This document shows positions 3,474 through 16,787 of a DNA stretch of 64,000 nucleotides, one piece after another. The stretch is from assembly GCA_947460345.1 (NCBI GenBank), contig CANHGM010000002.1, forward strand, positions 113,504 to 177,503. The letters are read 5' to 3'. How positions within the stretch are numbered: position 1 is the first letter of the stretch; every line of letters starts with the position of its first letter. The DNA comes from Bacteroidota bacterium (GTDB taxonomy: Bacteria > Bacteroidota > Bacteroidia > UKL13-3). Made by a program: the position numbers and the translations under genes. The notes under the pieces were generated by a model. The model ran no database searches. It was given only the letters and a program-made list of their open reading frames with translations, and was not told the DNA's origin.

Positions 3474-5054
3474 ATGGTTAGTATCAGACCGGATGAGGTA
3501 TCAGCAATAATTCGCGAACAGCTTACAGGCTTTAAAAGCGAAGCACAACTAGAAGAAGTAGGAACAGTACTTCAAGTTGGAGACGGTATAGCACGTATTT
3601 ACGGACTCACCAAAGTTCAATCAGGTGAGTTAATTGAGTTTAGTAACGGACTAAGAGGTATCGTACTAAATCTTGAAGAAAACAACGTAGGTGCTGTGTT
3701 ATTAGGTTCTTCAGACAACGTAAAAGAAGGAGATAACGTTAAACGTACTGGAAAAATTGCCTCTATTAACGTAGGTGAAGGTATGTTAGGACGTGTAGTG
3801 AACACCCTAGGTGCTCCTATAGATGGTAAAGGACCAATTCCTGGTGAATTGTTTGAAATGCCAATTGAGCGAAAAGCTCCTGGCGTACTTTTTAGAGAGC
3901 CAGTTAAAGAACCACTTCAAACTGGTATCAAAGCTATTGATGCAATGATTCCTATTGGCCGTGGTCAAAGAGAATTAGTTATTGGTGACCGTCAAACTGG
4001 TAAATCTGCCGTTTGTATAGATACCATTATCAACCAAAAAGAATTTTTCGATGCTGGTAAACCTGTATATTGTATTTATGTGGCTATCGGTCAAAAAGCA
4101 TCTACTGTAGCTCAAGTGGTGAAAACCCTTGAAGAAAACGGTGCAATGCAATATACTGTGGTAGTAGCGGCAACCGCTGCTGACCCAGCTCCAATGCAAT
4201 TCTACGCTCCTATGGCTGGTGCTGCAATTGGTGAGTATTTCCGCGACCTTGGTAAACCTGCTTTGATTGTTTATGACGATTTGTCTAAACAAGCGGTAGC
4301 TTATCGTGAGGTGTCTTTGCTTTTGAAAAGACCTCCAGGCCGTGAGGCTTATCCAGGTGACGTGTTCTACTTACATAGCCGTTTGCTTGAGCGTTCTTGC
4401 AAATTGAATGCAAATGACGAAATCACTTCTAAAATGAACGACTTACCTGATTCTTTAAAAGGTAAAGTTAAAGGTGGTGGATCATTAACAGCTCTTCCAA
4501 TTATCGAAACTCAAGCTGGCGACGTATCTGCTTATATCCCAACCAACGTAATCTCAATTACCGATGGTCAAATATTCTTGGAGTCTAACTTATTCAACTC
4601 TGGTGTTCGTCCCGCTATCAACGTGGGTATCTCAGTAAGTCGTGTGGGTGGTAATGCTCAAATCAAGTCTATGAAAAAAGTAGCTGGTACCTTAAAACTT
4701 GACCAAGCTCAATACCGTGAACTTGAAGCATTTGCTAAATTTGGTTCTGACTTGGACGCAGCTACAAAATCAGTGTTAACTAAAGGTGCTCGTAACGTAG
4801 AAATTCTTAAACAAGCTCAATTTAGCCCACTCACAGTAGAGAAGCAAACAGCAATCATATACTTAGGTACTAAAGGTTTGTTAAACGAAGCATCTATTAA
4901 TAAAGTAAGAGACTTTGAATCTTCTTTCTTACAAGTATTAGAAACCAAACATGCCGACACTTTAGCTGCTATTAAAAAAGGAGTTATTGATGATAGCGTA
5001 ACTTCAGTTTTAGAATCAGTAGCAAAAGATTTGATTTCTAGTTATAAAGACTAA
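3474..5054 (+). CDS. atpA: F0F1 ATP synthase subunit alpha
   Basis: 526 aa with P-loop GDRQTGKS plus the highly conserved alpha-subunit blocks [18 protein letters not shown] and [29 protein letters not shown]. Confidence 0.97.
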
Positions 5055-5071: not shown

Positions 5072-5956
5072 ATGGCTAATTTAAAGGAAGTAAGGATAAG
5101 AATTAAATCTGTTTCATCAACCCAACAGATTACAAAGGCAATGAAGCTTGTGAGTGCTACCAAGCTTAGAAAAGCTCAAGGTGCCATAGTGCAAATGAGG
5201 CCTTATGCCAATAAACTTAAAAGTATTATGCAAAATCTCAGTGATAGTATTGACTCTCCTGAATTAGCTGTATACTTTAACGAAAGAGATGTAAAGAATG
5301 TGTTGATGATTGTAGTAACAAGTGACAGAGGTCTTTGTGGTGCGTTTAATGCCAATGTATGCAAACTTGGTAAACTAACCATCCAAGAGCAATATTCTTC
5401 TTGCTATGAAAATGGAAATATAACTGTACTGCCAATTGGTAAAAAAGGTTTTGAATTTTTTAATAAAGATAAAAATTTAAAATTAGATACTTCTTATAGA
5501 GAATTATTCCAAAATCTGACTTCAGAAAATGTTTTTGAAGCTGGAGATAAAATAATGGAAATGTATAGAGAAGGTAAGTATGATAAAGTGGTTATAGTGT
5601 ATAATCAGTTTAAAAATGCTGCAACTCAAATATTAACAAACGAGCAATTGTTACCTGTTACTAAACCAACTGAAACTGGAGTTGTTACAACTAAAAATGA
5701 ATATATATTTGAACCTTCAAAAACAGATTTACTTAGCGATTTAATACCTCGTTCTTTAAAAACACAACTATATAAAGCATGTATTGATTCTTTTGCTTCT
5801 GAACATGGTGCTAGAATGGTAGCAATGGAAAAAGCAACAGAAAATGCTGGTGAATTGCTTAAGACATTACGTTTACAATATAACCAAGCTCGTCAAGCTG
5901 CTATTACTACTGAATTAAGTGAGATAGTAGGAGGTGCTGCAGCTATGGGTAATTAA
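5072..5956 (+). CDS. atpG: F0F1 ATP synthase subunit gamma
   Basis: 294 aa starting MANLKEVRIRIKSVSSTQQITKAMKLVSATKLRKAQ, ending with a helical C-terminus (ITTELSEIVGGAAA). Classic gamma subunit. Confidence 0.92.
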   Translation: MANLKEVRIRIKSVSSTQQITKAMKLVSATKLRKAQGAIVQMRPYANKLKSIMQNLSDSIDSPELAVYFNERDVKNVLMIVVTSDRGLCGAFNANVCKLGKLTIQEQYSSCYENGNITVLPIGKKGFEFFNKDKNLKLDTSYRELFQNLTSENVFEAGDKIMEMYREGKYDKVVIVYNQFKNAATQILTNEQLLPVTKPTETGVVTTKNEYIFEPSKTDLLSDLIPRSLKTQLYKACIDSFASEHGARMVAMEKATENAGELLKTLRLQYNQARQAAITTELSEIVGGAAAMGN

Positions 5957-5974
5957 TTTGTATCAAGATTTTTT

Positions 5975-6010
5975 AAAACCTCAGATATATATCTGAGGTT
6001 TTAATTTTTA
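5975..6010 (+). terminator. Rho-independent terminator after atpG
   Basis: Perfect hairpin aaaacctcagatat/atatctgaggtttt, followed by a T-rich tract. Confidence 0.6.
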
Positions 6011-6061: not shown

Positions 6062-8527
6062 TTGAATTATAAATTATCACAAATAGCAAGCATTGTTGGA
6101 GGCGAACTAATTGGTAAAGACTATAGCATTGCTCAAGTTTTTACTGATAGCAGAACTATTTCTAATATAAACCCTGAAACAGCTCTTTTTGTTGCATTAA
6201 ATAGTCAAAGGCAAAATGGTGAAAGATATATTACAGACTTATATCAATTAGGTTTTAGATATTTCTTATCAGAAAATGTATCTGAAGCGTATACTAATAT
6301 GTCTTATATTATTGTTCAGAATAGTCTTGATGCAATTCAGAAATTAGCAACATACCACCGCAAACTATTTAGAATGCCTTTGATTGCCATTACTGGCTCA
6401 AATGGAAAAACTGTAGTAAAAGAATGGTTGTTTCAACTACTCCATTCTAGTTTTAATATAGTAAGAAGCCCAGGCAGCTACAATTCTCAACTTGGTGTAC
6501 CACTTTCGCTTTTGCAAATGGAATCATCTCATTCTCTTGCTATTATTGAAGCTGGCATTTCTAAACCAAATGAAATGCAGAAATTACAACATATTATAAA
6601 TCCTGATATGGTAATTCTTACTCATATAGGGTCTGCACATGACGAAGGCTTTGAGAATAAAGAACAAAAAATTAGAGAAAAACTTAAGCTTGCTGAAAAT
6701 GCAGATTGCTTGGTGTATAACAAAGATGACGAACAAGTAAATAAATTAGTAAGTGAGTTTCTAGCTCATCACTTTATTAAATCATATAGTTGGAGCCTTA
6801 ATTCTGATGCTACAGTAAGTGTATACAAAATAGTAAAAAACATTGACCAAACGGAAATTCATTTTTTATACAAGTCAACCTCGTTAAATTTTTGTATCCC
6901 TTTTACTGATGATGCGTCTATTGAGAATGCTCTCTCTTGTGTTTGCTCCCTTATAGCTATTGAGAGATTAGATTTGGATATTCTATTAGCATTTAGTAAG
7001 CTTGTTTCTGTTTCAGGAAGACTTGAACAAAAGAAAGGAATTAATAATAGTTTGCTAATCAATGATAGTTACAGTAATGATTTTCATTCTCTTCAAACAG
7101 GATTGAATTTTATGGATAGACAAAATCCATTACTAGCAAAAACTGTGATATTGAGCGATATGTTAGAAAGTGGTATTAGTAAAAAAGATTTATATCAAAA
7201 GATTAGTGAGCTTTTAAACAAACATAAAATAAATAAACTTATAGCTATTGGTGCTGAAATATCAGAATGTAAAAACTATTTTAAAAGCATTCCTCATTCT
7301 ATATTTTATAATTCAATTGAAGAATATTTGAATAATTTTAATAGTAGAATATTTGGTAATGAAATAATTTTACTAAAAGGAGCAAGGATGTTTCATTTTG
7401 AAAGGATACTATTATTATTAGAAAAGCAAGTTCATCAAACTGTTTTGGAAATTAATTTAGATGCAATAGTTCATAACTTAAATATTTATAAAAATCAACT
7501 GTCAAAACACACTAAATTGATGGTAATGGTAAAAGCATTTAGTTATGGTAGCGGCAGTTTTGAATTAGCTAAGTTATTACAATACCAAAGAGTAGATTAC
7601 CTAGCTGTAGCATATGAGGATGAAGGTATGACACTTAGGAATGCAGGAATTACACTTCCTATAATGGTTATGAATGCTTCTGCTAAGGCTTATAAGCTCA
7701 TGCTAGACTATGATATTGAACCTTCTATATATTCAATTGAGATGCTCAGAAGTTTGGCAAGCTTTATACAAAACTCAACTAAGGAAATTGGAGTACATTT
7801 AGAATTTGAAACGGGAATGAACAGACTTGGTATTTCAATAGATGATATTGATGAAGTCATCACAATTTTAAATTTACATCCTCAAATAGAAATAAAATCT
7901 ATATTTACACATATGGCCTCGGCAGATGATTCTTCTGATGATGAGTATACACAAAAGCAGCTTTTGTTGTTTAAAGAAGCCCATTCAAAAGTTTGCCTTT
8001 CGTTAAAGAAAAATATATTATCTCATGCTGCAAATTCTGCTGGAATTTCTAGGTTTAATGGTTATAATTTAGGAATGGCTAGACTTGGAATTGGCTTGCA
8101 TGGAATAGACCCTTCAACAGAAATTCAAAAACAATTGAAGCCAGTTTCGAAACTAAAGTCTATTATAACCCAAGTACGGTTGGTTAAAAAAGGTGAGACC
8201 ATTGGATATAATAGAAAAACCAAGGCTGAACATGATTTCAACATGGCTGTAGTTGCAATAGGCTATGCTGATGGTTTGAATAGAATGCTTAGCAACAGAA
8301 AGGGCAAACTATATGTTAATGGAGTATCTTGTGAGATTGTAGGGAATGTATGTATGGATATGTGTATGATAGATTTAGGAAATCTAATAGTATATGAAGG
8401 ACAAGAAGTTATTGTATTTGAGGACATCTGTCAATTGAATGCTTTGGCCAAATCTTGTCAGACTATTGTATATGAAGTACTAACCGGAATATCAGAAAGA
8501 ATTACAAGGGTTTATTTACAAGAATAA
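6062..8527 (+). CDS. murF: Bifunctional UDP-N-acetylmuramoyl-tripeptide--D-alanyl-D-alanine ligase (MurF) / alanine racemase (Alr) fusion
   Basis: N-terminal half has the Mur ligase features (ATP-binding ITGSNGKT, catalytic and C-terminal Mur domains). C-terminal half has alanine racemase features: PLP-lysine motif VMVKAFSYGSG (compare AVVKANAYGHG) and the C-terminal beta domain (NVCMDMCMIDLG). Single 821-aa ORF. Confidence 0.8.
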   Translation: MNYKLSQIASIVGGELIGKDYSIAQVFTDSRTISNINPETALFVALNSQRQNGERYITDLYQLGFRYFLSENVSEAYTNMSYIIVQNSLDAIQKLATYHRKLFRMPLIAITGSNGKTVVKEWLFQLLHSSFNIVRSPGSYNSQLGVPLSLLQMESSHSLAIIEAGISKPNEMQKLQHIINPDMVILTHIGSAHDEGFENKEQKIREKLKLAENADCLVYNKDDEQVNKLVSEFLAHHFIKSYSWSLNSDATVSVYKIVKNIDQTEIHFLYKSTSLNFCIPFTDDASIENALSCVCSLIAIERLDLDILLAFSKLVSVSGRLEQKKGINNSLLINDSYSNDFHSLQTGLNFMDRQNPLLAKTVILSDMLESGISKKDLYQKISELLNKHKINKLIAIGAEISECKNYFKSIPHSIFYNSIEEYLNNFNSRIFGNEIILLKGARMFHFERILLLLEKQVHQTVLEINLDAIVHNLNIYKNQLSKHTKLMVMVKAFSYGSGSFELAKLLQYQRVDYLAVAYEDEGMTLRNAGITLPIMVMNASAKAYKLMLDYDIEPSIYSIEMLRSLASFIQNSTKEIGVHLEFETGMNRLGISIDDIDEVITILNLHPQIEIKSIFTHMASADDSSDDEYTQKQLLLFKEAHSKVCLSLKKNILSHAANSAGISRFNGYNLGMARLGIGLHGIDPSTEIQKQLKPVSKLKSIITQVRLVKKGETIGYNRKTKAEHDFNMAVVAIGYADGLNRMLSNRKGKLYVNGVSCEIVGNVCMDMCMIDLGNLIVYEGQEVIVFEDICQLNALAKSCQTIVYEVLTGISERITRVYLQE

Positions 8528-9229: not shown

Positions 9230-9279
9230 TAAATTCTAACCAAATAGTTGATCCGGATTTATTATTTTAAAGTTTATTA

Positions 9280-9996
9280 TTATTTGATACCATCAGTTTC
9301 GCTTTTAATGTTTTTGCCATTTGATGAGGCTGATAATACTTTCCATTCTTCTCTATAGCCTACTTCAAATTCTTTTAAAAAGTTGATGTTTAATGTACGA
9401 ATTGAAACTCTTTGAGCTATTTCTCCAGCATTGTTTGTTTTAAAATCTTTTATTGCATATGATCTTCCAATTTGACGAATGATCTCTTTTTCACTTAAAC
9501 TAGATGTTTTTTGTTGTAATTTAACTTGGTCTACTATGTTGCAAGCTGAAATAAATGAACGGAATTGAGTTAACATTTCGAAAGTATCAACCTCTAACTT
9601 ACACTGAAACATAATACTTTTGTCTGGGCTATAAAGATAGAGTGCTGGCATAATTAATACACCATGCTTAGCAGCCATTTGTTTACCATATTTAGTTGAA
9701 ACGTCACCATTCATACAAATGTATCTATTCCTTATCGTACCTTTTACTTTAACATGATTCATGATTTCTCTCGAGAATTTCTTACTTGATAAGCAAGTTT
9801 GAGAATGGATATATATTAAAACAGGTTTGTTTTCAGTTTGTGCAATTTCAAAAACTTTTTCTTGAGATTCTTTCATCATATATTCTAACTTACCCTGAAC
9901 AAGTTGTTGTTGTGCACTTGATTCATAGGTATTAGTAACTATAATAGCCAAGCTAAATAAAATAGCTAATAGAATTTGATTGATAAAATTTTTCAT
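9280..9996 (-). CDS. Secreted hypothetical protein with thioredoxin-like central region
   Basis: 238 aa with a signal peptide ([29 protein letters not shown]). Its 3' end is duplicated in degraded form at 10139..10265. Confidence 0.5.
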   Translation of the reverse strand: MKNFINQILLAILFSLAIIVTNTYESSAQQQLVQGKLEYMMKESQEKVFEIAQTENKPVLIYIHSQTCLSSKKFSREIMNHVKVKGTIRNRYICMNGDVSTKYGKQMAAKHGVLIMPALYLYSPDKSIMFQCKLEVDTFEMLTQFRSFISACNIVDQVKLQQKTSSLSEKEIIRQIGRSYAIKDFKTNNAGEIAQRVSIRTLNINFLKEFEVGYREEWKVLSASSNGKNIKSETDGIK

Positions 9997-10138
9997 TGTG
10001 GTATTTTTTTAGAATTGTTTCATATATCCTTATGATAGTGTAAAATGCTTATAAGAACATAAATGAAACAATGTACAAATATACGATTATCTTATTAATT
10101 TAAAAATCCAAGATATTAAGCCTAGATTTTTTTATTTT

Positions 10139-10270
10139 TTATTCTTTAATCTTATTTAATACTAGCAGCTTCGCTTGTATTGTGTTTGCCATTTGAAGCA
10201 ACCAATACGTCCATTTTTCTCTATAACCTACATCAAATTCTTTGAAAAAGTTAATATTTTTTAAATTTGT
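10139..10270 (-). pseudogene. Degraded 3' fragment of a paralog of the 9280..9996 gene (insertion scar)
   Basis: About 120 nt with roughly 75-80% identity to 9280..9420. Encodes KNINFFKEFDVGYREKWT versus LNINFLKEFEVGYREEWK in the intact gene, then a frameshift. The 5' part of the paralog is absent and the JetC-like gene begins 94 nt further on. Confidence 0.45.
10241..10269 (+). promoter_or_regulatory. Candidate Bacteroidota sigma-A type promoter (TTTG -33 element, 17-nt spacer, TAAATTTG -7 element) for the 4-gene operon
   Basis: TTTG at 10241-10244 and TAAATTTG at 10262-10269 match the Bacteroidetes consensus TTTG-N17-23-TAnnTTTG. Located about 95 nt upstream of the ATG at 10364. Confidence 0.25.
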
Positions 10271-10363
10271 TTTAAATGAAAATATAACAATTTGTGTAAA
10301 AACTGTAAGTAACATCAAGTATATAAACATTAATATCGCAAGGTTTTTATAACATTCAAAAAC

Positions 10364-13006
10364 ATGCTGAATAAAATTATTTTAATCAATACAAAGGTTT
10401 ATCAAAAAGCAGAAATAAATATAGGTGATTGCGATTCATTACAACTTGTTGGGCCTAACAACGTAGGCAAGTCTACTTTGATATATGCACTCAATTTTTT
10501 GTTTGTAATCGATGGCAACAAAATGACATTTAGTGGCCAGAGAAGAGGAGACAAAGAAACTTTACACCATTATTTTCCTTCTCCAAATCAAAGTTATATT
10601 ATGTTTGAAATATTCAAGAAAACATATTATACTATTTTAGTTAAACGTGATACTGAAAGTAATTTAGAATATTATAAAATTGACCAAGCATACAATAAAG
10701 ATTTTTTTATTGATGTAGATAGCAAATTGTTAAAGTTTGAAGAAGTCAAAGAAAATTTGCTGAAGAAAGGAATAGCACTTCATGAATATAAAGATAAACG
10801 TGAAGTGTTTATGGATGTTTATCAAAGAGGCAGAAAGAATAATGGTGTAGTATGGCTAGATGATAAAGTGAGAATGGATGGGTTAAGCAACAATTTTTCT
10901 AAAATATATCGATATTTAATTAACACCAAGCTTATCACAAACAAAAATCTAAAAGAAGCTCTTTTAGTAGCTGACAATAGAGAAGCGGAAGAGTTGAATT
11001 TTTCTCAAAAACATAAGAAAGACATCACTGATTTATCTAAAATAAACAATGAAATTAGAAATGTAAAAGCTGTAAGAACTGATTTTGAAGAGTTTAGAGA
11101 AGCAGTTAGTCAGTATGCTGCCAGAAACCAAGCAATTGGTGAATTGTATTACGCATTTAACAAACAATATGAAGATGCTTTGCCCATATTGCAAAACAGT
11201 TTGATAAAAGAGAAAAGCGAAATGGACAGAATTCGTATTCATATAAACGAAGACCTGATGCCAAAGCAAGAAGAACTAACCCGCAAACAAGGTAAGAACG
11301 AAGCAGAGATTGAGAATAAACTATTTCAATTACAAGAGAAAGAAACCAAGTTGAAAATCATTAATGGGTATGAAGGGGTTCCAATGTTAGACTCTATGCT
11401 AGCCAATTATGACAAGACTAGAAAAGAAATTGAAAGTAGAATAACAATGGTTGATATACAGAATTTGACTGTTCAATCATTAGAAAATAAAATCAAAACT
11501 GCACAAGAAAGGAAAACAATCATAGATCAACAGATTAAAAACTTCAAAAATTTGTTGATACATAATATTGCAGATAAAGAGTCAGACAGAAAGTTGTTAA
11601 ATACAATTTTTTCAGAGCAAGTTAGTAGTTTGCCTGTTGATAGAATACTGAATAAGATAAAAAAGACTTCTAAAAGATTAAACTTATTTGATGGTGAGAT
11701 AGATATTTCAGATGGTTTGGTTTTGAAAGATTTAAAAACCGTTGAAGAGTTAAAAGCTGAACTAGCAGACTTTGCTTTAGAGTTAGAGCAAAATAAAATG
11801 CTACTAAAAGTGGTTATTGACAAACAGAAAACACAAGAAGAGCTTGAGGAAATTCTGAGAAAAATTGAGGAAATCAAGTTTAAATTAGCTGAGCTTAAAA
11901 CAAGACCTAAGCTCGAAGACAGTATTAATAAACTTAAAGATGAGTCAAAAGAACTTATACAAGCTAAAAACGAGTATGAGAAACAAGCTATAGTTTTAAA
12001 GAAAGAAATTGAGCAACAGCAGTTAAGACTAGAAGAAGCAAGAAATAATAGAGATAGATTTGATAATAGATTGACGGAGTTGCAAAACGCTAAGCAAGAA
12101 TTAGAGAGTTTTGGATTAGCATGCATTGAGTCTGAAAGTGAGCTAGATTTAGACAGAATATACAAACGTATAAAATTACAAATTGAAGATAGGAACAATA
12201 TCAAGTCTAGAAAAGACCATTTGTTCCAAAAGTTAAGAGAAAAGTTATTGAGCAATTTTGCTAGTGAAAATGAATTCATCAAGTTTTACGACGAAGAAAT
12301 AGGATTGATAGAAAGCAAGGAGAGAAGTATAGAAGGTTTGTTGCAAAGTATAAGTACACAATTTGCCAATCCAGCTCATACTTTAATGAAAAGATATGAG
12401 GAGTTTAAAGAATTTGTGACCAATAACTTTAACAATAAACTTGGCAAGACACGCATATCAGACATTGAATCGTTAAGAATTGAATTGATTGATAACAAGA
12501 AGTTGATGGAAGAGTTGAAGAAGATTAGTCAAATTCAGGAAGTAAAAGGCCAATTGATGTTTGATTTTGACCAGAGCGAAAACTTGAAGATTCTGAATCA
12601 TTATTTGGATACCGCTAAGAAAATTAAGTTTGAAGACTTATTCGATATGACCTTGCATTTAACCAGAAAAGGTCAAAGCAGGCCAGTTGATTTGAGTGAG
12701 CAAATAGAGAGTGATGGAACAGATAAAATGATAAGACTTGTGATTGTGATGAATATCATTAATAGATTGGCAATAACTGATGAAGAAAACAAAATAACTT
12801 TGTTTGTGGATGAGGTAGCAACAATTGATAAACAAAATAGACCTGAGTTGGTAAGGTTTTGCAGAGAGCATCATTTTATTCCGATTTTTGCTGCACCAGA
12901 CGCAGTACCAGGTTTTGGTAAGTATTATTTTATATATCCTTCTGCTGGTAAAATAAACATTAACGAAAATCATCATGCAGTATATGCTGAAAGTTTGGCC
13001 AATTAA
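10364..13006 (+). CDS. SMC/Rad50-like ABC ATPase with long coiled coil (JetC/MksB-like, compact)
   Basis: N-terminal Walker A (GPNNVGKST, aa 30-38) and an approximately 500-aa K/E/L/Q-rich coiled-coil middle. The C-terminal head has a signature-like SDGTDK, Walker B ITLFVDEV (D816/E817), D-loop ATID and H-loop REHHF. It is the first gene of a 4-gene overlapping operon. Confidence 0.6.
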   Translation: MLNKIILINTKVYQKAEINIGDCDSLQLVGPNNVGKSTLIYALNFLFVIDGNKMTFSGQRRGDKETLHHYFPSPNQSYIMFEIFKKTYYTILVKRDTESNLEYYKIDQAYNKDFFIDVDSKLLKFEEVKENLLKKGIALHEYKDKREVFMDVYQRGRKNNGVVWLDDKVRMDGLSNNFSKIYRYLINTKLITNKNLKEALLVADNREAEELNFSQKHKKDITDLSKINNEIRNVKAVRTDFEEFREAVSQYAARNQAIGELYYAFNKQYEDALPILQNSLIKEKSEMDRIRIHINEDLMPKQEELTRKQGKNEAEIENKLFQLQEKETKLKIINGYEGVPMLDSMLANYDKTRKEIESRITMVDIQNLTVQSLENKIKTAQERKTIIDQQIKNFKNLLIHNIADKESDRKLLNTIFSEQVSSLPVDRILNKIKKTSKRLNLFDGEIDISDGLVLKDLKTVEELKAELADFALELEQNKMLLKVVIDKQKTQEELEEILRKIEEIKFKLAELKTRPKLEDSINKLKDESKELIQAKNEYEKQAIVLKKEIEQQQLRLEEARNNRDRFDNRLTELQNAKQELESFGLACIESESELDLDRIYKRIKLQIEDRNNIKSRKDHLFQKLREKLLSNFASENEFIKFYDEEIGLIESKERSIEGLLQSISTQFANPAHTLMKRYEEFKEFVTNNFNNKLGKTRISDIESLRIELIDNKKLMEELKKISQIQEVKGQLMFDFDQSENLKILNHYLDTAKKIKFEDLFDMTLHLTRKGQSRPVDLSEQIESDGTDKMIRLVIVMNIINRLAITDEENKITLFVDEVATIDKQNRPELVRFCREHHFIPIFAAPDAVPGFGKYYFIYPSAGKININENHHAVYAESLAN

Positions 13007-13018
13007 TAACGAGTTGTT

Positions 13019-13858
13019 TTGAATCAAACGGAAAAGAACATATATACAAGATTGAAAAACGGAGAAAAGATTAGTAAAACACTAATTCCTAAAACAGTCT
13101 TTAATTCTACATTTTTTGAGAATATACTCAATGTGAAATTTATCCTCCAAGAGAAATCAGGAAGAGGGAGTATATTCTTTGTCAATAAACAAAAAGAAAA
13201 AGAGTTTGAAGAGTTCTATAAAAACAAGTTTCCTGATACATTTTCTAAACCATGTCAGAACAGAATAGAATCAACTGCTCAATTTAGAAATTCAAAAACA
13301 AGAACAAAAAGCCAAGACTCTATTTTTTTCTTAAGGGGAAGACATCTAACAATTAATGGTCAAGAGGTTAGCCCTATAAGTTATGAAAAAAAGTTTGGCG
13401 TTTTTGCAGTGAACAATGCCACAATAAGTGCAGATAAAATCTGTATCGTAGAAAATTTATCTGTATTTATGAGAGCAGAATCACTTTTGGGAAATGAATT
13501 TATATATATGATGAAATACGGAAGAGTTGGAAAGAATGATTTGATGAATATAGATTCTAATGAACTTTTGGTTTTTAATGATTATGACGAAACAGGAATA
13601 ATTGAGTTTTTAAGAATCAAGGAGAATAAAAACAATGCAACGTTTTTTATACCTAAGAATTTTAATGAGCTTCATAATAAATACTCTAGTGAAATTACCA
13701 AAGATTACAGAAATTATAAGTTAATAGAAGAATTAGTTGATTCAGATTTGAAAGATATTTTATATTTGAATAAAACAACTAATAGATTCTTAGAACAAGA
13801 ATCTTTGCTTATAAATATACAAAGTCAACAACAAACAGAACAAGTACATGCAAGCTGA
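13019..13858 (+). CDS. Toprim-like nuclease-candidate protein (resembles C-terminal DUF2220-type domain of JetD/MksG)
   Basis: 279 aa with a TTG start 12 nt after the upstream stop. Motifs ICIVENLSVF (E145) and LLVFNDYDETGIIEF (D188, D190) fit the Toprim E...DxD arrangement seen in Wadjet JetD. The N-terminal roughly 130 aa are basic. There is an 11-nt overlap with the next gene. Confidence 0.45.
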   Translation: MNQTEKNIYTRLKNGEKISKTLIPKTVFNSTFFENILNVKFILQEKSGRGSIFFVNKQKEKEFEEFYKNKFPDTFSKPCQNRIESTAQFRNSKTRTKSQDSIFFLRGRHLTINGQEVSPISYEKKFGVFAVNNATISADKICIVENLSVFMRAESLLGNEFIYMMKYGRVGKNDLMNIDSNELLVFNDYDETGIIEFLRIKENKNNATFFIPKNFNELHNKYSSEITKDYRNYKLIEELVDSDLKDILYLNKTTNRFLEQESLLINIQSQQQTEQVHAS

Positions 13859-15038
13859 ACCTAAAACCATACTCAATTTCTTAGCCACTCACTTTGATGC
13901 ATTGGTGTTTTTGTTTGAAAAGCAAAACAATGAAGGTAGTATTCATCTTAGAACTTTCAGAGAGTTTGAGGAAGAATTTGGACATATAGAGCAACAACTT
14001 TTTAGTTATAAGATATTACGTAAAATAGGTGAAGATGCTGAGTTCAGCGGTGAGATATATAACTTATTTCAATTTGTATTGAAGGAGTTTAAACCTATGT
14101 TGCCTGAAACTATTGAGAAATACAATAGCAGTATCAGTAATTTGTTTAGGTTGATTAGAGATGGCATTAATGGTGATAAACTAATATTGGCAAAACGAAT
14201 AGATGAACTATATAGCGAAGCTTTTTCTTTTGTTGAATCAGTGGAGAAAAACACGCTGAGATTGTTGGCTGAAACCAGAGAACTTAAATCAAATGTCACA
14301 AAAATTGACTATAAACAAAAAGTAGAGAAAGCATCTTTTTGGATTGATTATTATATACAACCTTTAAATAATATATTAGACATTAGTCATGCTCAAAGTA
14401 TAGTAAACAAACTGTTAGATATTTCAAATTTCATCAATATCAAGCGTTTAAATTTCCATGACGAAACCATTAGAAAGCAATTTGAAAAGTTGTATTTTTT
14501 TCTTATACAATCAAACCATGATTTGTTGTATCAATCAAAAATATTGACCAATGAGCTTTTACCGTTAATTGAACGTATCAGAACAGAGAGCTTGATACTT
14601 ACAGGATGGATTGAGTTTTTAAAAATACCAAATAAAGTTGAGGTTCCTAAACTTCTTAAAGTGTTAAGAGACAACCCATATAGCGATGAAATGTACTACC
14701 ATGCTAAAGATTTTGTGATGCAGTTTCAGAATATTGAAGACATTATAATTTCTGAAGAATTAGTTGAAACAGATATGTGGATTTTTAATAAAGAAAAATA
14801 TAAAGAAGATTTATTAAATAAAATGCCTGTGAACGACTTTTTTGAATGGGCTATAGAATCGTTGAACAAAGAATATAAAATGGCTGAAACAGAGAAGTTG
14901 TTTTCTTTAACATCACTATTGTTTGAAGATGATTTTGATAAAGAGTTTGATCCAATGAATAAACATGTATTCATTCAAACAACCCAGTTAAAACTAAAAG
15001 TACCTAAAATAAAAATATATAAACATGGAATATCCTAA
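13848..15038 (+). CDS. Hypothetical protein, candidate kleisin-like (JetA/MksF-position) subunit
   Basis: 396-aa helical protein whose start overlaps the preceding stop (ATG 13848, stop 13856-13858) and whose end overlaps the next start. No catalytic motif is evident, so the assignment rests on operon context only. Confidence 0.3.
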   Translation: MQAEPKTILNFLATHFDALVFLFEKQNNEGSIHLRTFREFEEEFGHIEQQLFSYKILRKIGEDAEFSGEIYNLFQFVLKEFKPMLPETIEKYNSSISNLFRLIRDGINGDKLILAKRIDELYSEAFSFVESVEKNTLRLLAETRELKSNVTKIDYKQKVEKASFWIDYYIQPLNNILDISHAQSIVNKLLDISNFINIKRLNFHDETIRKQFEKLYFFLIQSNHDLLYQSKILTNELLPLIERIRTESLILTGWIEFLKIPNKVEVPKLLKVLRDNPYSDEMYYHAKDFVMQFQNIEDIIISEELVETDMWIFNKEKYKEDLLNKMPVNDFFEWAIESLNKEYKMAETEKLFSLTSLLFEDDFDKEFDPMNKHVFIQTTQLKLKVPKIKIYKHGIS

Positions 15039-15585
15039 ACAGCATAAAGATATAGTTTCAGATTTGATGGCAGGAAAATTCTTGCTTCGCAATGATTTTA
15101 ATTTTGATATTTTAAAACAAAATAAAGATTTTTACACTAGTTTTTTTAAAGAGAGTTTTAACTATGGATTGCAGCTAGAATCTGAGTTTGCTTACCTTAT
15201 AAGTTTTGAAACTAAAGAACAACTTTCTAGAGATATATGCATACTGATTGCGTTACTAAGTTATGAGCTAGACAAAGACGGAAAAAACTTCATGGACCAA
15301 TTGAGTTATGCTTTGTTTGAGTATGACCAGATTGATAAATATTTCGAAGGCTCGTCCTATCAAGAACTGATTAAGTCTAATAAACAATTAAAAGATGTTG
15401 AGTCTAGACGAATGTTCTATAGAACTTTATCTAACAGGAATATCATTGAAAAAGAAGGTGAAAATCAATTTAGATTTACATCAGCAATTAAAGTTTTTAT
15501 AGATTTTGCAGTTGATTTTGCACAAGGTAAACTTGAGCAAGCAACAGTATCAATTGATGAAGACACAAGTTCTATTGACGAGTAA
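15025..15585 (+). CDS. JetB/MksE-like (DUF4194-like) small acidic protein
   Basis: 186 aa. The segment LMAGKFLLRNDFNFDILKQNKDFYTSFFKESFNYGLQLESEFAYLISFE resembles the DUF4194 consensus block (..LLkG.l.r......w..L......i.dYfa.lGLeL.lDEaeGyAfLr). Acidic C-terminus. Last gene of the operon. Confidence 0.4.
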   Translation: MEYPKQHKDIVSDLMAGKFLLRNDFNFDILKQNKDFYTSFFKESFNYGLQLESEFAYLISFETKEQLSRDICILIALLSYELDKDGKNFMDQLSYALFEYDQIDKYFEGSSYQELIKSNKQLKDVESRRMFYRTLSNRNIIEKEGENQFRFTSAIKVFIDFAVDFAQGKLEQATVSIDEDTSSIDE

Positions 15586-15590
15586 AGTTC

Positions 15591-16787
15591 TTAAACTTTT
15601 TCGTATATAATTGCCATTCCTTGACCTACGCCTACACACATGGTTGCTAAACCATATTTGATATTTTGTTTATGCATAGCATGAATTAAAGTTGTAGAAA
15701 TACGTGCTCCACTACAACCCAGCGGGTGACCAATAGCTATAGCACCACCATTAATATTTATTGTATCAGGGTTTAGTTCTAAATCTTGAATACAAGCCAA
15801 ACTTTGACTAGCAAAAGCTTCATTTAGTTCTATTAGGCCTAAATCTTTAATTGATATACCAGCACGTTTTAATGCTTTGTTGGTAGCAGGTACAGGCCCT
15901 ATACCCATAATGGCTGGGTCAACCCCTGCAGAGGCAGCAGAAACTACTCGAGCTAGTGGTTTTAAGTTGTGTTTTTTGACAAAATCTTCAGAAGCTAAAA
16001 TCAATGCTGATGCACCATCGTTAACCCCTGATGAATTGCCTGCGGTAACAGAACCATCTTTAGCAAAAGCAGGCTTCAATGCTGAAAGGGCTTCAAGCGT
16101 TGTTTCTCTTGGATGCTCATCTTTAGTAAATATCATAGGGTCACCTTTCTTTTGAGGTATTGAGACTTCCACTATTTCATTTTTAAAGTTGTTTTGACTG
16201 TGAGCAATTGCATATTTAAGTTGAGAACTTAAAGCAAATTTGTCTTGCATCTCACGTGAAATGGCATATTTTTTTGCGACATTTTCAGCTGTTTCGCCCA
16301 TGCTGTATGGATGATATAATTCAGCAAGTTTTTTGTTTGTAAATCTCCAGCCAATAGTGGTATCAAATATTTCAGGAGCTCTTGAAAAAGCAGCATCAGC
16401 TTTGGCCATAACAAATGGTGCCCTTGTCATACTTTCAGTACCTCCAGCTATATATAAGTCGCCTTCACCCATAGCAATAGCTCTATAAGCATCTGTGATG
16501 GCTTGAAGACCCGATGCACAAAGTCTGTTTACTGTATTACCACCTATGTTTATAGGCAATCCTGCTAACAACAAAGCCATCCTAGCTACATCTCTATTGT
16601 CTTCGCCTGCTTGGTTTGCGGCTCCTAAAATTACATCTTCAGTAAGTGAAAAATCAATGTTTGGGTTTCTAGCAACCAATGCTTTTAATACTACTGCTGC
16701 TAAGTCGTCGGGTCTTACTTGTGCTAAAGATCCACCATATCTTCCTACCGGAGTTCTTACAGCATCAATTATATATACTTGTTTCAT
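15591..16787 (-). CDS. Acetyl-CoA C-acetyltransferase (thiolase family)
   Basis: 398 aa beginning MKQVYIIDAVRTPVGRYGGSL with the active-site Cys region NRLCASGLQAI and the C-terminal GLATMCVGVGQG thiolase signature. Confidence 0.92.
   Translation of the reverse strand: MKQVYIIDAVRTPVGRYGGSLAQVRPDDLAAVVLKALVARNPNIDFSLTEDVILGAANQAGEDNRDVARMALLLAGLPINIGGNTVNRLCASGLQAITDAYRAIAMGEGDLYIAGGTESMTRAPFVMAKADAAFSRAPEIFDTTIGWRFTNKKLAELYHPYSMGETAENVAKKYAISREMQDKFALSSQLKYAIAHSQNNFKNEIVEVSIPQKKGDPMIFTKDEHPRETTLEALSALKPAFAKDGSVTAGNSSGVNDGASALILASEDFVKKHNLKPLARVVSAASAGVDPAIMGIGPVPATNKALKRAGISIKDLGLIELNEAFASQSLACIQDLELNPDTININGGAIAIGHPLGCSGARISTTLIHAMHKQNIKYGLATMCVGVGQGMAIIYEKV

Follow-up and report, generated by a model that had tools for sequence, protein, structure and literature searches.

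A four-gene condensin-like operon of Bacteroidota that may restrict foreign circular DNA

In a 64,000-nucleotide (nt) stretch of a Bacteroidota genome (contig CANHGM010000002.1 of GenBank assembly GCA_947460345.1; this whole stretch is 'the window' below) we studied an operon of four genes, g1 to g4, that is predicted to encode a structural maintenance of chromosomes (SMC)-like ATP-binding cassette (ABC) ATPase, a putative nuclease, a kleisin-like protein and a KITE subunit (Table 1). We propose that this operon is probably a Wadjet-like machine for the restriction of foreign circular DNA, built on a backbone of the MksBEF type. Wadjet is the same system as JetABCD, MksBEFG and EptABCD, and is divided into types I–III (Doron 2018); in the MksBEFG complex of Corynebacterium glutamicum the nuclease is MksG (PMC10123090); JetABCD extrudes DNA loops and then cuts circular plasmids (PMC10586767; bioRxiv 10.1101/2025.03.10.642339). 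The four proteins described here are encoded as one tightly coupled unit, which moves between genomes as a block.

A condensin-like core and a nuclease-like partner

The AlphaFold2 model of g2 (predicted local distance difference test score, pLDDT, of 81.8) contains a winged helix (residues ~1–70) and a Toprim domain (~130–265), joined by a linker in which there are short strands; the closest structural match of this model is the MksG nuclease. The Toprim fold carries a conserved Glu and a DxD metal site, as in topoisomerase VI subunit A (Topo VI-A) and MksG. E145, Y167, D188 and D190 are invariant in all 30 of the sequences compared, with the motifs IVENLSV and FNDYDETG, and the Toprim-type catalytic layout that a preliminary description of this DNA had read from the letters is thereby upheld. 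The family-invariant SGRG wing and C-terminal RFLEQ are also retained. The spacings within the catalytic core (22 residues from E to Y, 43 from E to D) equal those of E236, Y258 and D279 in MksG, of which E236 and D279 are required for nuclease activity (PMC10123090). By this spacing, E145, Y167 and D188 would be the equivalents of the three MksG residues; Y167 lies 22 residues past E145 as the proposed Y258 lies past E236, a match by spacing only, and in the winged helix of g2 we could not assign a catalytic tyrosine. Pfam returned no significant match for g2 alone; among the 30 homologues, JetD_C is matched weakly in 26 and DUF7281 in 27. The DUF3322 arm is absent from g2 and from all 30 homologues. 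The earlier claim that g2 lacks an N-terminal domain is therefore correct with regard to this arm and incorrect with regard to the winged helix of ~70 amino acids (aa) that precedes the Toprim domain. The TTG start of g2 lines up with the MNQT... start of its homologues.

g1 is predicted to be an SMC-like ABC ATPase of the MukB/JetC/MksB kind. Pfam places DUF3584 (a MukB/JetC-type family) and AAA_29 on its N-terminal head; among the 19 sequences of its family, DUF3584 is found in 9 (best E-value 9.3e-18) and AAA_29 in 18. The preliminary description had listed a Walker A motif, an SDGTDK-type signature, a Walker B motif, a D-loop and an H-loop. The first four are borne out by residues that are invariant in all 19 sequences: G30, P31, N32, N33, G35, K36, S37 and T38 of Walker A; E782, S783, G785, T786 and D787 of the signature, which takes the variant form ESDGTD; D816 and E817 of Walker B; and D822 of the D-loop. 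The Q-loop residue Q154 is likewise invariant. The H-loop could not be sustained: position 836 is His in 13 of the 19 sequences and Asn in six, while the alternative at position 847, after the last head strand, is His in 11/19 homologues and Ala in the window, so that no conserved candidate for the H-loop histidine was found in this set.

The domain limits of g1 were drawn from its conservation profile. The two halves of the head (~1–215 and ~680–880) are separated by ~465 aa, in which coiled-coil-type matches surround a better-conserved centre of ~70 aa (~395–470); the latter may be a small hinge, flanked by arms. The homology of g1 with the ATPase of a compact Mks-like operon from Neptuniibacter extends over the full length (hhalign 98.9%), and profile comparison with the Salinibacter ATPase gives 98.3%. 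The PADLOC JetC model makes a weak and partial match to g1 (6.5e-06 over residues 2–56), and the AriA and AbiLi models of the same collection make weak ones, over the P-loop or short segments only. Readings of the operon as a Rad50/SbcC, Lamassu or OLD/PARIS-type system were rejected because it has both a kleisin and a KITE protein.

For g3 there was no match in Pfam, NCBIfam, PADLOC or PDB sequence profiles, and no consistent family emerged from a Pfam search of g3, 23 homologues and 20 remote relatives. Its AlphaFold2 model (pLDDT 74.8) consists of an N-terminal winged helix (5–66), a helical bundle (68–259) and a C-terminal winged helix (315–392), with a disordered linker (263–311) between the last two; as modelled, this layout is the kleisin anatomy of the MukF/JetA type. 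MukF and JetA lead the fold matches in two programs, and the top four from Foldseek are MukF, JetA (8q72_E), MukF and MukF, none with an E-value below 1e-3. These matches agree with the kleisin slot to which g3 had been provisionally assigned. The provisional reading of g4 as JetB/DUF4194-like needs amendment: g4 is indeed a KITE protein, but its strong match is to Pfam MksE (PF21980; E-value 3.1e-19, 70.4 bits against a cut-off of 27), which is found in 19/19 members of the g4 family, whereas that to DUF4194/JetB is weak (E-value 0.027). Sequence searches of PDB chains, with the single proteins and with the family profiles of g1–g4, returned nothing useful; what came back was noise, namely P-loop and coiled-coil matches for g1 and a serpin for g3.

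A conserved unit in Bacteroidota with plasmid-borne relatives

Judged by their conservation, g1–g4 are real genes and not chance open reading frames (ORFs), because the same four proteins occur in the same order in 45 species-level genomes, at 34–58% identity. These loci were found by scanning 185,579 genomes (one per species) for two short peptide patterns; the count of 45 is an undercount, because only these two patterns are recognised, and the scan, being seeded with g2, could find four-gene loci only. The spread is sporadic and lies nearly all in Bacteroidota (Flavobacteriia, Cytophagia, Chitinophagia, Saprospiria and some Bacteroidia); three metagenome-assembled genomes among the 45 bear another phylum label or none. 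As had been described for the window, the order is g1-g2-g3-g4, or C-D-A-B in Jet lettering, and it is constant in every complete locus, with typical sizes of ~886/264/403/175 aa and conserved overlapping junctions.

The surroundings of these genomic loci are almost never shared, and close relatives at 70–82% identity occupy different chromosomal sites. Several of the neighbours that we sampled at four-gene loci are defence genes, and the neighbours include BrxC, a GajA/GajB-like pair, a ResIII-PLD restriction enzyme and AbiEii. Beside the cassette in five otherwise unrelated loci, usually just upstream and on the same strand, there is an HNH_2 endonuclease gene encoding 259–323 aa (L014, 4550–5329; L026, 3433–4404; L033, 4463–5308; L034; L046), which may be either an accessory gene or a hitch-hiking gene of the homing type.

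A search of 1.84 billion representative proteins with the g3 profile gave 115 matches only, and the remote full-length matches are true homologues (hhalign 99.5%, family A2 against family A7). Their operons are located on plasmids (Salinibacter ruber pSR76, Pseudomonas sp. Leaf58 pBASL58, Neptuniibacter halophilus pLMG25378 and the Ralstonia solanacearum megaplasmid) and encode, in this order, a kleisin-like protein (404–441 aa), MksE (185–238 aa), the ATPase (879–942 aa) and a Toprim protein (231–336 aa), the last being a DUF7281/JetD_C protein in the two operons that were scanned with Pfam. Since these remote relatives keep the canonical F-E-B-G order, the C-D-A-B order of Bacteroidota is a cyclic permutation of it.

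By sequence, we place the backbone of the window operon on the MksBEF side of the MukBEF/MksBEF/Wadjet superfamily. NCBI gives the name 'condensin complex protein MksE' to a Pseudomonas protein with 55% identity to the MksE of Leaf58, and the neighbours of its gene belong to Pfam PF28010 and PF28007; the remote g3 group (A7) matches the 436-aa protein in the kleisin position of that Pseudomonas locus (hhalign 99.1%). Against the NCBIfam models NF040857–NF040859, such intermediate relatives score 31–324 bits, with cut-offs of 400–1900, and the window proteins have no match at E ≤ 1 to any of the three. The PADLOC Jet models gave no match at E ≤ 1 to g2, g3 or g4, and weak partial matches at most to the compact F-E-B-G relatives. 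The preliminary description had suggested a distinct, minimised lineage, of which the first half stands: the family is distinct, but its small size is normal for the MksBEF branch and is not a new minimisation, because the backbone is closer to that condensin branch than to Wadjet I–III. It had named an already classified system with this exact architecture as a finding that would refute it, and we found none in PADLOC, NCBIfam or the literature; a literature search yielded no paper on this system, on DUF7281, or on a type IV Wadjet or mini-Wadjet.

Some annotations of the remote operons merit comment. In the S. ruber pSR76 locus (L050) the annotated ATPase (9241–11880) begins at the equivalent of g1 residue 103 (NCBIfam position 91) and so lacks the Walker A region; an unannotated gap of 333 nt precedes it, and the gene is either mis-annotated or disrupted. 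Pseudomonas operons of the megaplasmid type have a fifth gene, encoding 389–399 aa, that overlaps the end of the small Toprim gene (L052, 12989–14158; L051, 12533–13732); in L052 this gene has an AcrVA2-like Pfam annotation, and an extra gene encoding 118 aa lies between those for MksE and the ATPase. In the operon of L052 (6688–12100), the protein of ~412–436 aa in the kleisin position is labelled 'MksB', and the ATPase of ~926–949 aa 'MksF', by the NCBIfam models NF040857 and NF040859 and by the newer Pfam families PF28010 and PF28007. This naming is the reverse of that in Petrushenko 2011 and the C. glutamicum papers, in which MksB is the SMC-like ATPase, and it is a likely source of annotation confusion.

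Proposed mechanism

In the mechanism that we envisage by analogy with JetABCD/MksBEFG, two g1 molecules would dimerise through the small central segment, while g3 would bridge the g1 heads and carry a g4 dimer, its N-terminal winged helix pairing two motors. The complex would load onto DNA and extrude loops with ATP. On a small circular DNA the two motors would meet and stall, and this stalled state would recruit or unlock a g2 dimer, which would cut via its Toprim sites (E145, D188, D190 and perhaps Y167). The host chromosome would be spared because extrusion never completes there. As g2 is without the DUF3322/aCAP arm, which in type I Wadjet covers the active site and touches JetB, shielding and docking of that kind could not apply, and gating would have to differ; it might operate through the small winged helix of g2, with its invariant SGRG wing as a candidate contact for DNA or a partner.

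Restriction machine or chromosome organiser

Several observations weigh against a restriction machine. When metagenomes were scanned with g3 as the seed, 63 of the 85 loci that we classified had three genes, 13 had four (two of these cut by contig ends), three had a longer gap without g2, and six were left unclassified. The three-gene loci fall into groups with shared flanks (e.g., signal peptidase upstream and chorismate synthase downstream), an apparent synteny that is inflated where contigs of the metagenomes derive from related populations. The window operon is itself surrounded by housekeeping genes (ATP synthase, a MurF-Alr fusion, RuvA and SprA), which place the organism in Bacteroidota. 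No Bacteroidota copy of the cassette was found in a tblastn search of 72,556 plasmids with g3, or in a pattern scan of viral contigs. Identity between the window g2 and any other g2 is only 31–42%, including cases in which the backbones share 60–72%, a divergence that could mean relaxed constraint. On current profiles the backbone is nearer to MksBEF, which in Pseudomonas aeruginosa organises the chromosome, than to Wadjet I–III, and in the mechanism above the stoichiometry, the hinge and the contact of g2 with the core are ones that we infer.

Given that 63 of the 85 g3-seeded loci have no nuclease gene, the B-F-E core must work without DNA cutting; and as most close relatives are of this kind, a role in defence is less automatic for the family as a whole. 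It might then be argued that the operon encodes an MksBEF-type chromosome-organising condensin, and that the Toprim protein is a housekeeping accessory, either topoisomerase-like or break-making, which resolves entangled or dimeric chromosomes. This explanation agrees with the membership of g4 in Pfam MksE, with the matches of remote relatives to the NCBI 'Mks condensin' models, with the conserved housekeeping synteny of the close relatives, mostly three-gene, and with the housekeeping flanks in the window; moreover, MksBEF of Pseudomonas aeruginosa aids chromosome segregation (bioRxiv 10.1101/2020.05.18.101659). We nevertheless consider it unlikely, since unshared flanks and defence neighbours belong in particular to the nuclease-bearing form (flanks are unique in 11/11 of the four-gene metagenome loci), the species-level spread is sporadic even allowing for an undercounting scan (45 among 185,579 genomes), and the protein that g2 matches best in structure is a nuclease with a proven part in plasmid defence. 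Furthermore, the gain, loss and swapping of a gene among close relatives would not be expected of a housekeeping accessory.

The evidence for such gain and loss is as follows. A large protein collection contains 924 relatives of g3 as against 128 of g2, because many of the g3 relatives sit in three-gene loci. Relatives in which g3 is 57–59% identical to that of the window have three genes only (ATPase, kleisin-like and MksE). The closest relative of the window operon (L061; 82/79/80% identical for g1/g3/g4) has no g2, nor does L056 (77/75/78%); in L057 (71/72/70%) g2 is present and only 41% identical. In a three-gene locus, L060, the 118-nt gap before g3 (5883–6000) reads ...NNKNRFLEQEALFI and then a stop; these are the last ~12 codons of a Toprim gene (...KNRFLEQEALFI, stop), and because they encode the conserved C-terminal motif of g2, we read the gap as the scar of a g2 deletion. 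No remnant of g2 was found in three loci with gaps of 506–1259 nt. In the one gap whose content was examined, that of L103, an unrelated gene for a 306-aa, extradiol-dioxygenase-like protein (3812–4732, reverse strand; read from its translation) splits the operon between the ATPase and kleisin-like genes, in the opposite orientation, and it probably does so too in L108, which has the same downstream flanks.

A second alternative is that the window copy is a decaying intermediate, with a backbone like that of the three-gene relatives and a non-functional g2 on its way to deletion. Its proponents could cite the absence of g2 from the two closest relatives (75–82% identical), the L060 scar as proof that loss occurs, and the unusual divergence of the window g2. 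Yet the g2 ORF is intact and translationally coupled to its neighbours, AlphaFold2 folds the window protein confidently, and its E145, Y167, D188, D190, SGRG wing and RFLEQ motif are all kept; other assemblies from this organism carry it at 99% identity. We therefore judge decay to be improbable.

The identity patterns of g2 tell of more than loss. In other clades the identity of g2 follows that of the backbone, whereas in the clade of the window, backbones that are 70–72% identical carry g2 proteins that are only 36–42% identical. Among the window, L057, L080, L002 and L078, mutual identities are 31–42% for g2 and 54–72% for the other three proteins. The divergence in this clade suggests replacement or swapping of g2, its independent acquisition, or fast evolution. 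The flavobacterial loci L037 and L048 show the converse, with g2 98% identical as against 85% for g1 and 91% for g3; the Toprim genes of L012, L016, L022, L035 and L040 are likewise more similar to that of L048 than are their backbones. Such a pattern is suggestive of recombination by which the nuclease gene passes from one cassette to another. The direction assigned to gain and loss of g2 rests on the one scar together with these identity patterns.

A system for abortive infection or phage defence that pairs an ABC ATPase with a Toprim protein, like OLD, Gabija or PARIS, or else a sensor resembling Lamassu or Rad50, in which phage DNA or proteins would be detected by the ATPase and the nuclease then released, seems to us very improbable: related loci do lie in defence islands, and there are weak matches of AriA and AbiLi at the g1 P-loop region and of LmuB over the coiled coil of a remote relative's ATPase, but such systems have no kleisin or KITE protein (both are present and conserved here), the g2 Toprim domain is of the Topo VI-A/MksG and not the OLD type, and the AriA and AbiLi matches are confined to the P-loop or short segments.

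We thus retain the restriction of foreign circular DNA as the probable role of the window operon. More tentatively, we raise the possibility that Wadjet-like immunity has a fourth class, as yet undescribed and placed inside the MksBEF branch, to which the cassette belongs. In this class the nuclease would be a facultative module, a minimal winged-helix/Toprim gene inserted between those for the ATPase and the kleisin; it would have been repeatedly lost and possibly re-acquired or swapped, and lineages that lose it would settle into fixed chromosomal loci as condensins.

The locus and its borders

The tight coupling noted in the preliminary description is exactly as it was given, with a 12-nt spacer between g1 and g2 (TAACGAGTTGTT) and overlaps of 11 nt (g2/g3) and 14 nt (g3/g4). 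So too is the downstream border, where a convergent thiolase gene ends at 15591, 5 nt beyond g4. The gene remnant reported at the other border is real: 13 of 16 residues in the 63-aa ORF are identical to the C-terminal part of an adjacent gene for a 238-aa thioredoxin-like protein (E-value 7e-09). That gene lies at 9280–9996, and the shared motif, NINF(F/L)KEF(D/E)VGYRE(K/E)W, is near its C-terminus. The match suggests that the 63-aa ORF is the 3' remnant of a tandem paralogue, most of which would have been replaced or truncated when the cassette arrived. Assembly GCA_044350015.1 and two further assemblies have the same cassette sequence between the same flanks.

At the cassette flanks, a search for direct and inverted repeats gave no convincing case that would mark an insertion. 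The G+C content of the four-gene cassette is 0.299, that of the whole window 0.319; this difference is too small, and a composition-based island call was dropped. Scans for sigma-70-type promoters and for terminators gave results at chance level only; the Bacteroidota -7 motif TAnnTTTG is present at 10262–10269, yet its count in the window is that expected by chance. Further upstream, an 821-aa ORF (6062–8527, forward strand) encodes a MurF-like Mur ligase fused to an alanine racemase; this assignment is based on the Pfam families Mur_ligase_M and Ala_racemase_N/C in the identical gene of L003.

Table 1. Positions of the operon genes, their main motifs and the bordering remnant in the window
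Feature	Position	Strand	Size or residues	Description
g1	10364-13006	+	880 aa, ATG start	SMC-like ABC ATPase (predicted), MksB/JetC position
g1 Walker A	10451-10477	+	residues 30-38	GPNNVGKST
g1 C-terminal head motifs	12707-12817	+	residues 782-787; 813-818	signature-like ESDGTD; Walker B LFVDEV
g2	13019-13858	+	279 aa, TTG start	putative nuclease, winged-helix + Toprim, MksG/JetD position
g2 catalytic core	13451-13588	+	E145; Y167; D188-Y-D190	13451-13453; 13517-13519; 13580-13588
g3	13848-15038	+	396 aa	kleisin-like protein, MksF/JetA/MukF position
g4	15025-15585	+	186 aa	KITE subunit, MksE family
Remnant ORF	10139-10330	-	63 aa	border feature outside the machine; carries a copy of the C-terminal motif of the thioredoxin-like neighbour

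Significance

Among the known barriers to plasmid uptake that work by sensing the shape and size of DNA, Wadjet is the main one, and it is counted with models of types I–III. PADLOC v2.0.0 misses the lineage described here, whose proteins are annotated as hypothetical, and model-based censuses would therefore not count it; such an uncounted lineage may bear on how readily Flavobacteriia, Cytophagia and Chitinophagia can be manipulated genetically. With an SMC protein of 880 aa and an armless nuclease of 279 aa, it is also a small and possibly easier subject for structural work, and g2 raises the question of how cleavage is licensed without a shielding arm.

To us, the most interesting aspect is the polymorphism for presence or absence of the nuclease among close relatives. 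According to a proposal from SMC researchers, Wadjet gave rise to MksBEF and MukBEF when its nuclease was lost (bioRxiv 10.1101/2025.03.10.642339), and the coexistence of related cassettes with and without it makes this domestication hypothesis testable on natural pairs. If there is indeed a class in which the nuclease is facultative, then the family would directly exhibit the domestication of Wadjet into organisers of the MksBEF/MukBEF type, and it would gate its nuclease differently, g2 being without the aCAP arm. The family seems to record a switch between DNA defence and chromosome folding.

Comparison with known systems

The likeness to Wadjet, of which reviews recognise types I–III only, lies in the same four roles (SMC-like ATPase, kleisin, KITE protein and Topo VI-A-like Toprim protein), as recognised by remote homology and fold; in a single operon that is often found in defence islands; and in a Toprim E...DxD triad with catalytic spacing equal to that of MksG. 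The differences are in order, size and family. Wadjet genes run A-B-C-D (F-E-B-G), whereas those of the window and the 45 Bacteroidota genomes run C-D-A-B. JetD has ~400 aa and combines a DUF3322 arm with a DUF2220/JetD_C Toprim domain, in contrast to the 279 aa and the small winged helix of g2; the Wadjet KITE protein belongs to DUF4194, and g4 to Pfam MksE; and the Wadjet ATPase has ~1100 aa as against 880 for g1. The PADLOC profile models for Wadjet are unmatched by g2, g3 and g4 and are only grazed by g1.

The backbone proteins of MksBEF (Petrushenko 2011; NF040857, NF040858 and NF040859, with model lengths of 412, 232 and 926 aa) fall into the size class of the window proteins, and MksB is already known to have a shorter coiled coil (PMC4255302). 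Pfam assigns g4 to MksE, and g3 and g1 are tied to the NCBI Mks models through intermediates, although neither the window proteins nor these intermediates reach the NCBIfam equivalog cut-offs. MksBEF differs in having three genes, F-E-B, without a nuclease, where the window has B-(G)-F-E with a Toprim gene, and in its fixed chromosomal locus, where the four-gene form occurs in mobile or defence contexts. E. coli MukBEF is further removed: it has no nuclease, much longer coiled coils, another gene order and no detectable sequence similarity to the window proteins. The operon differs from topoisomerase VI subunit A and Spo11 in that it encodes no B subunit and that the partners of g2 are SMC-type proteins.

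The nearest relatives outside Bacteroidota are the compact F-E-B-G operons, all annotated as hypothetical proteins. In Salinibacter all four proteins are homologous to those of the window, by profile comparison or Pfam; in Neptuniibacter the ATPase is homologous to g1; the Pseudomonas pBASL58 operon combines a DUF7281 protein with MksE; and in Neptuniibacter and Ralstonia the four genes agree in order and sizes with those of these compact relatives. Identity to the window is 17–25% only, the operons lie on plasmids or megaplasmids, unlike that of the window, and the Salinibacter Toprim protein has no N-terminal winged helix, unlike g2. Taken against these systems, the Bacteroidota cassette would resemble Wadjet in function, while its profiles, the architecture of its JetD counterpart and its gene order set it outside types I–III, and its equivalog scores set it outside MksBEF as presently modelled.

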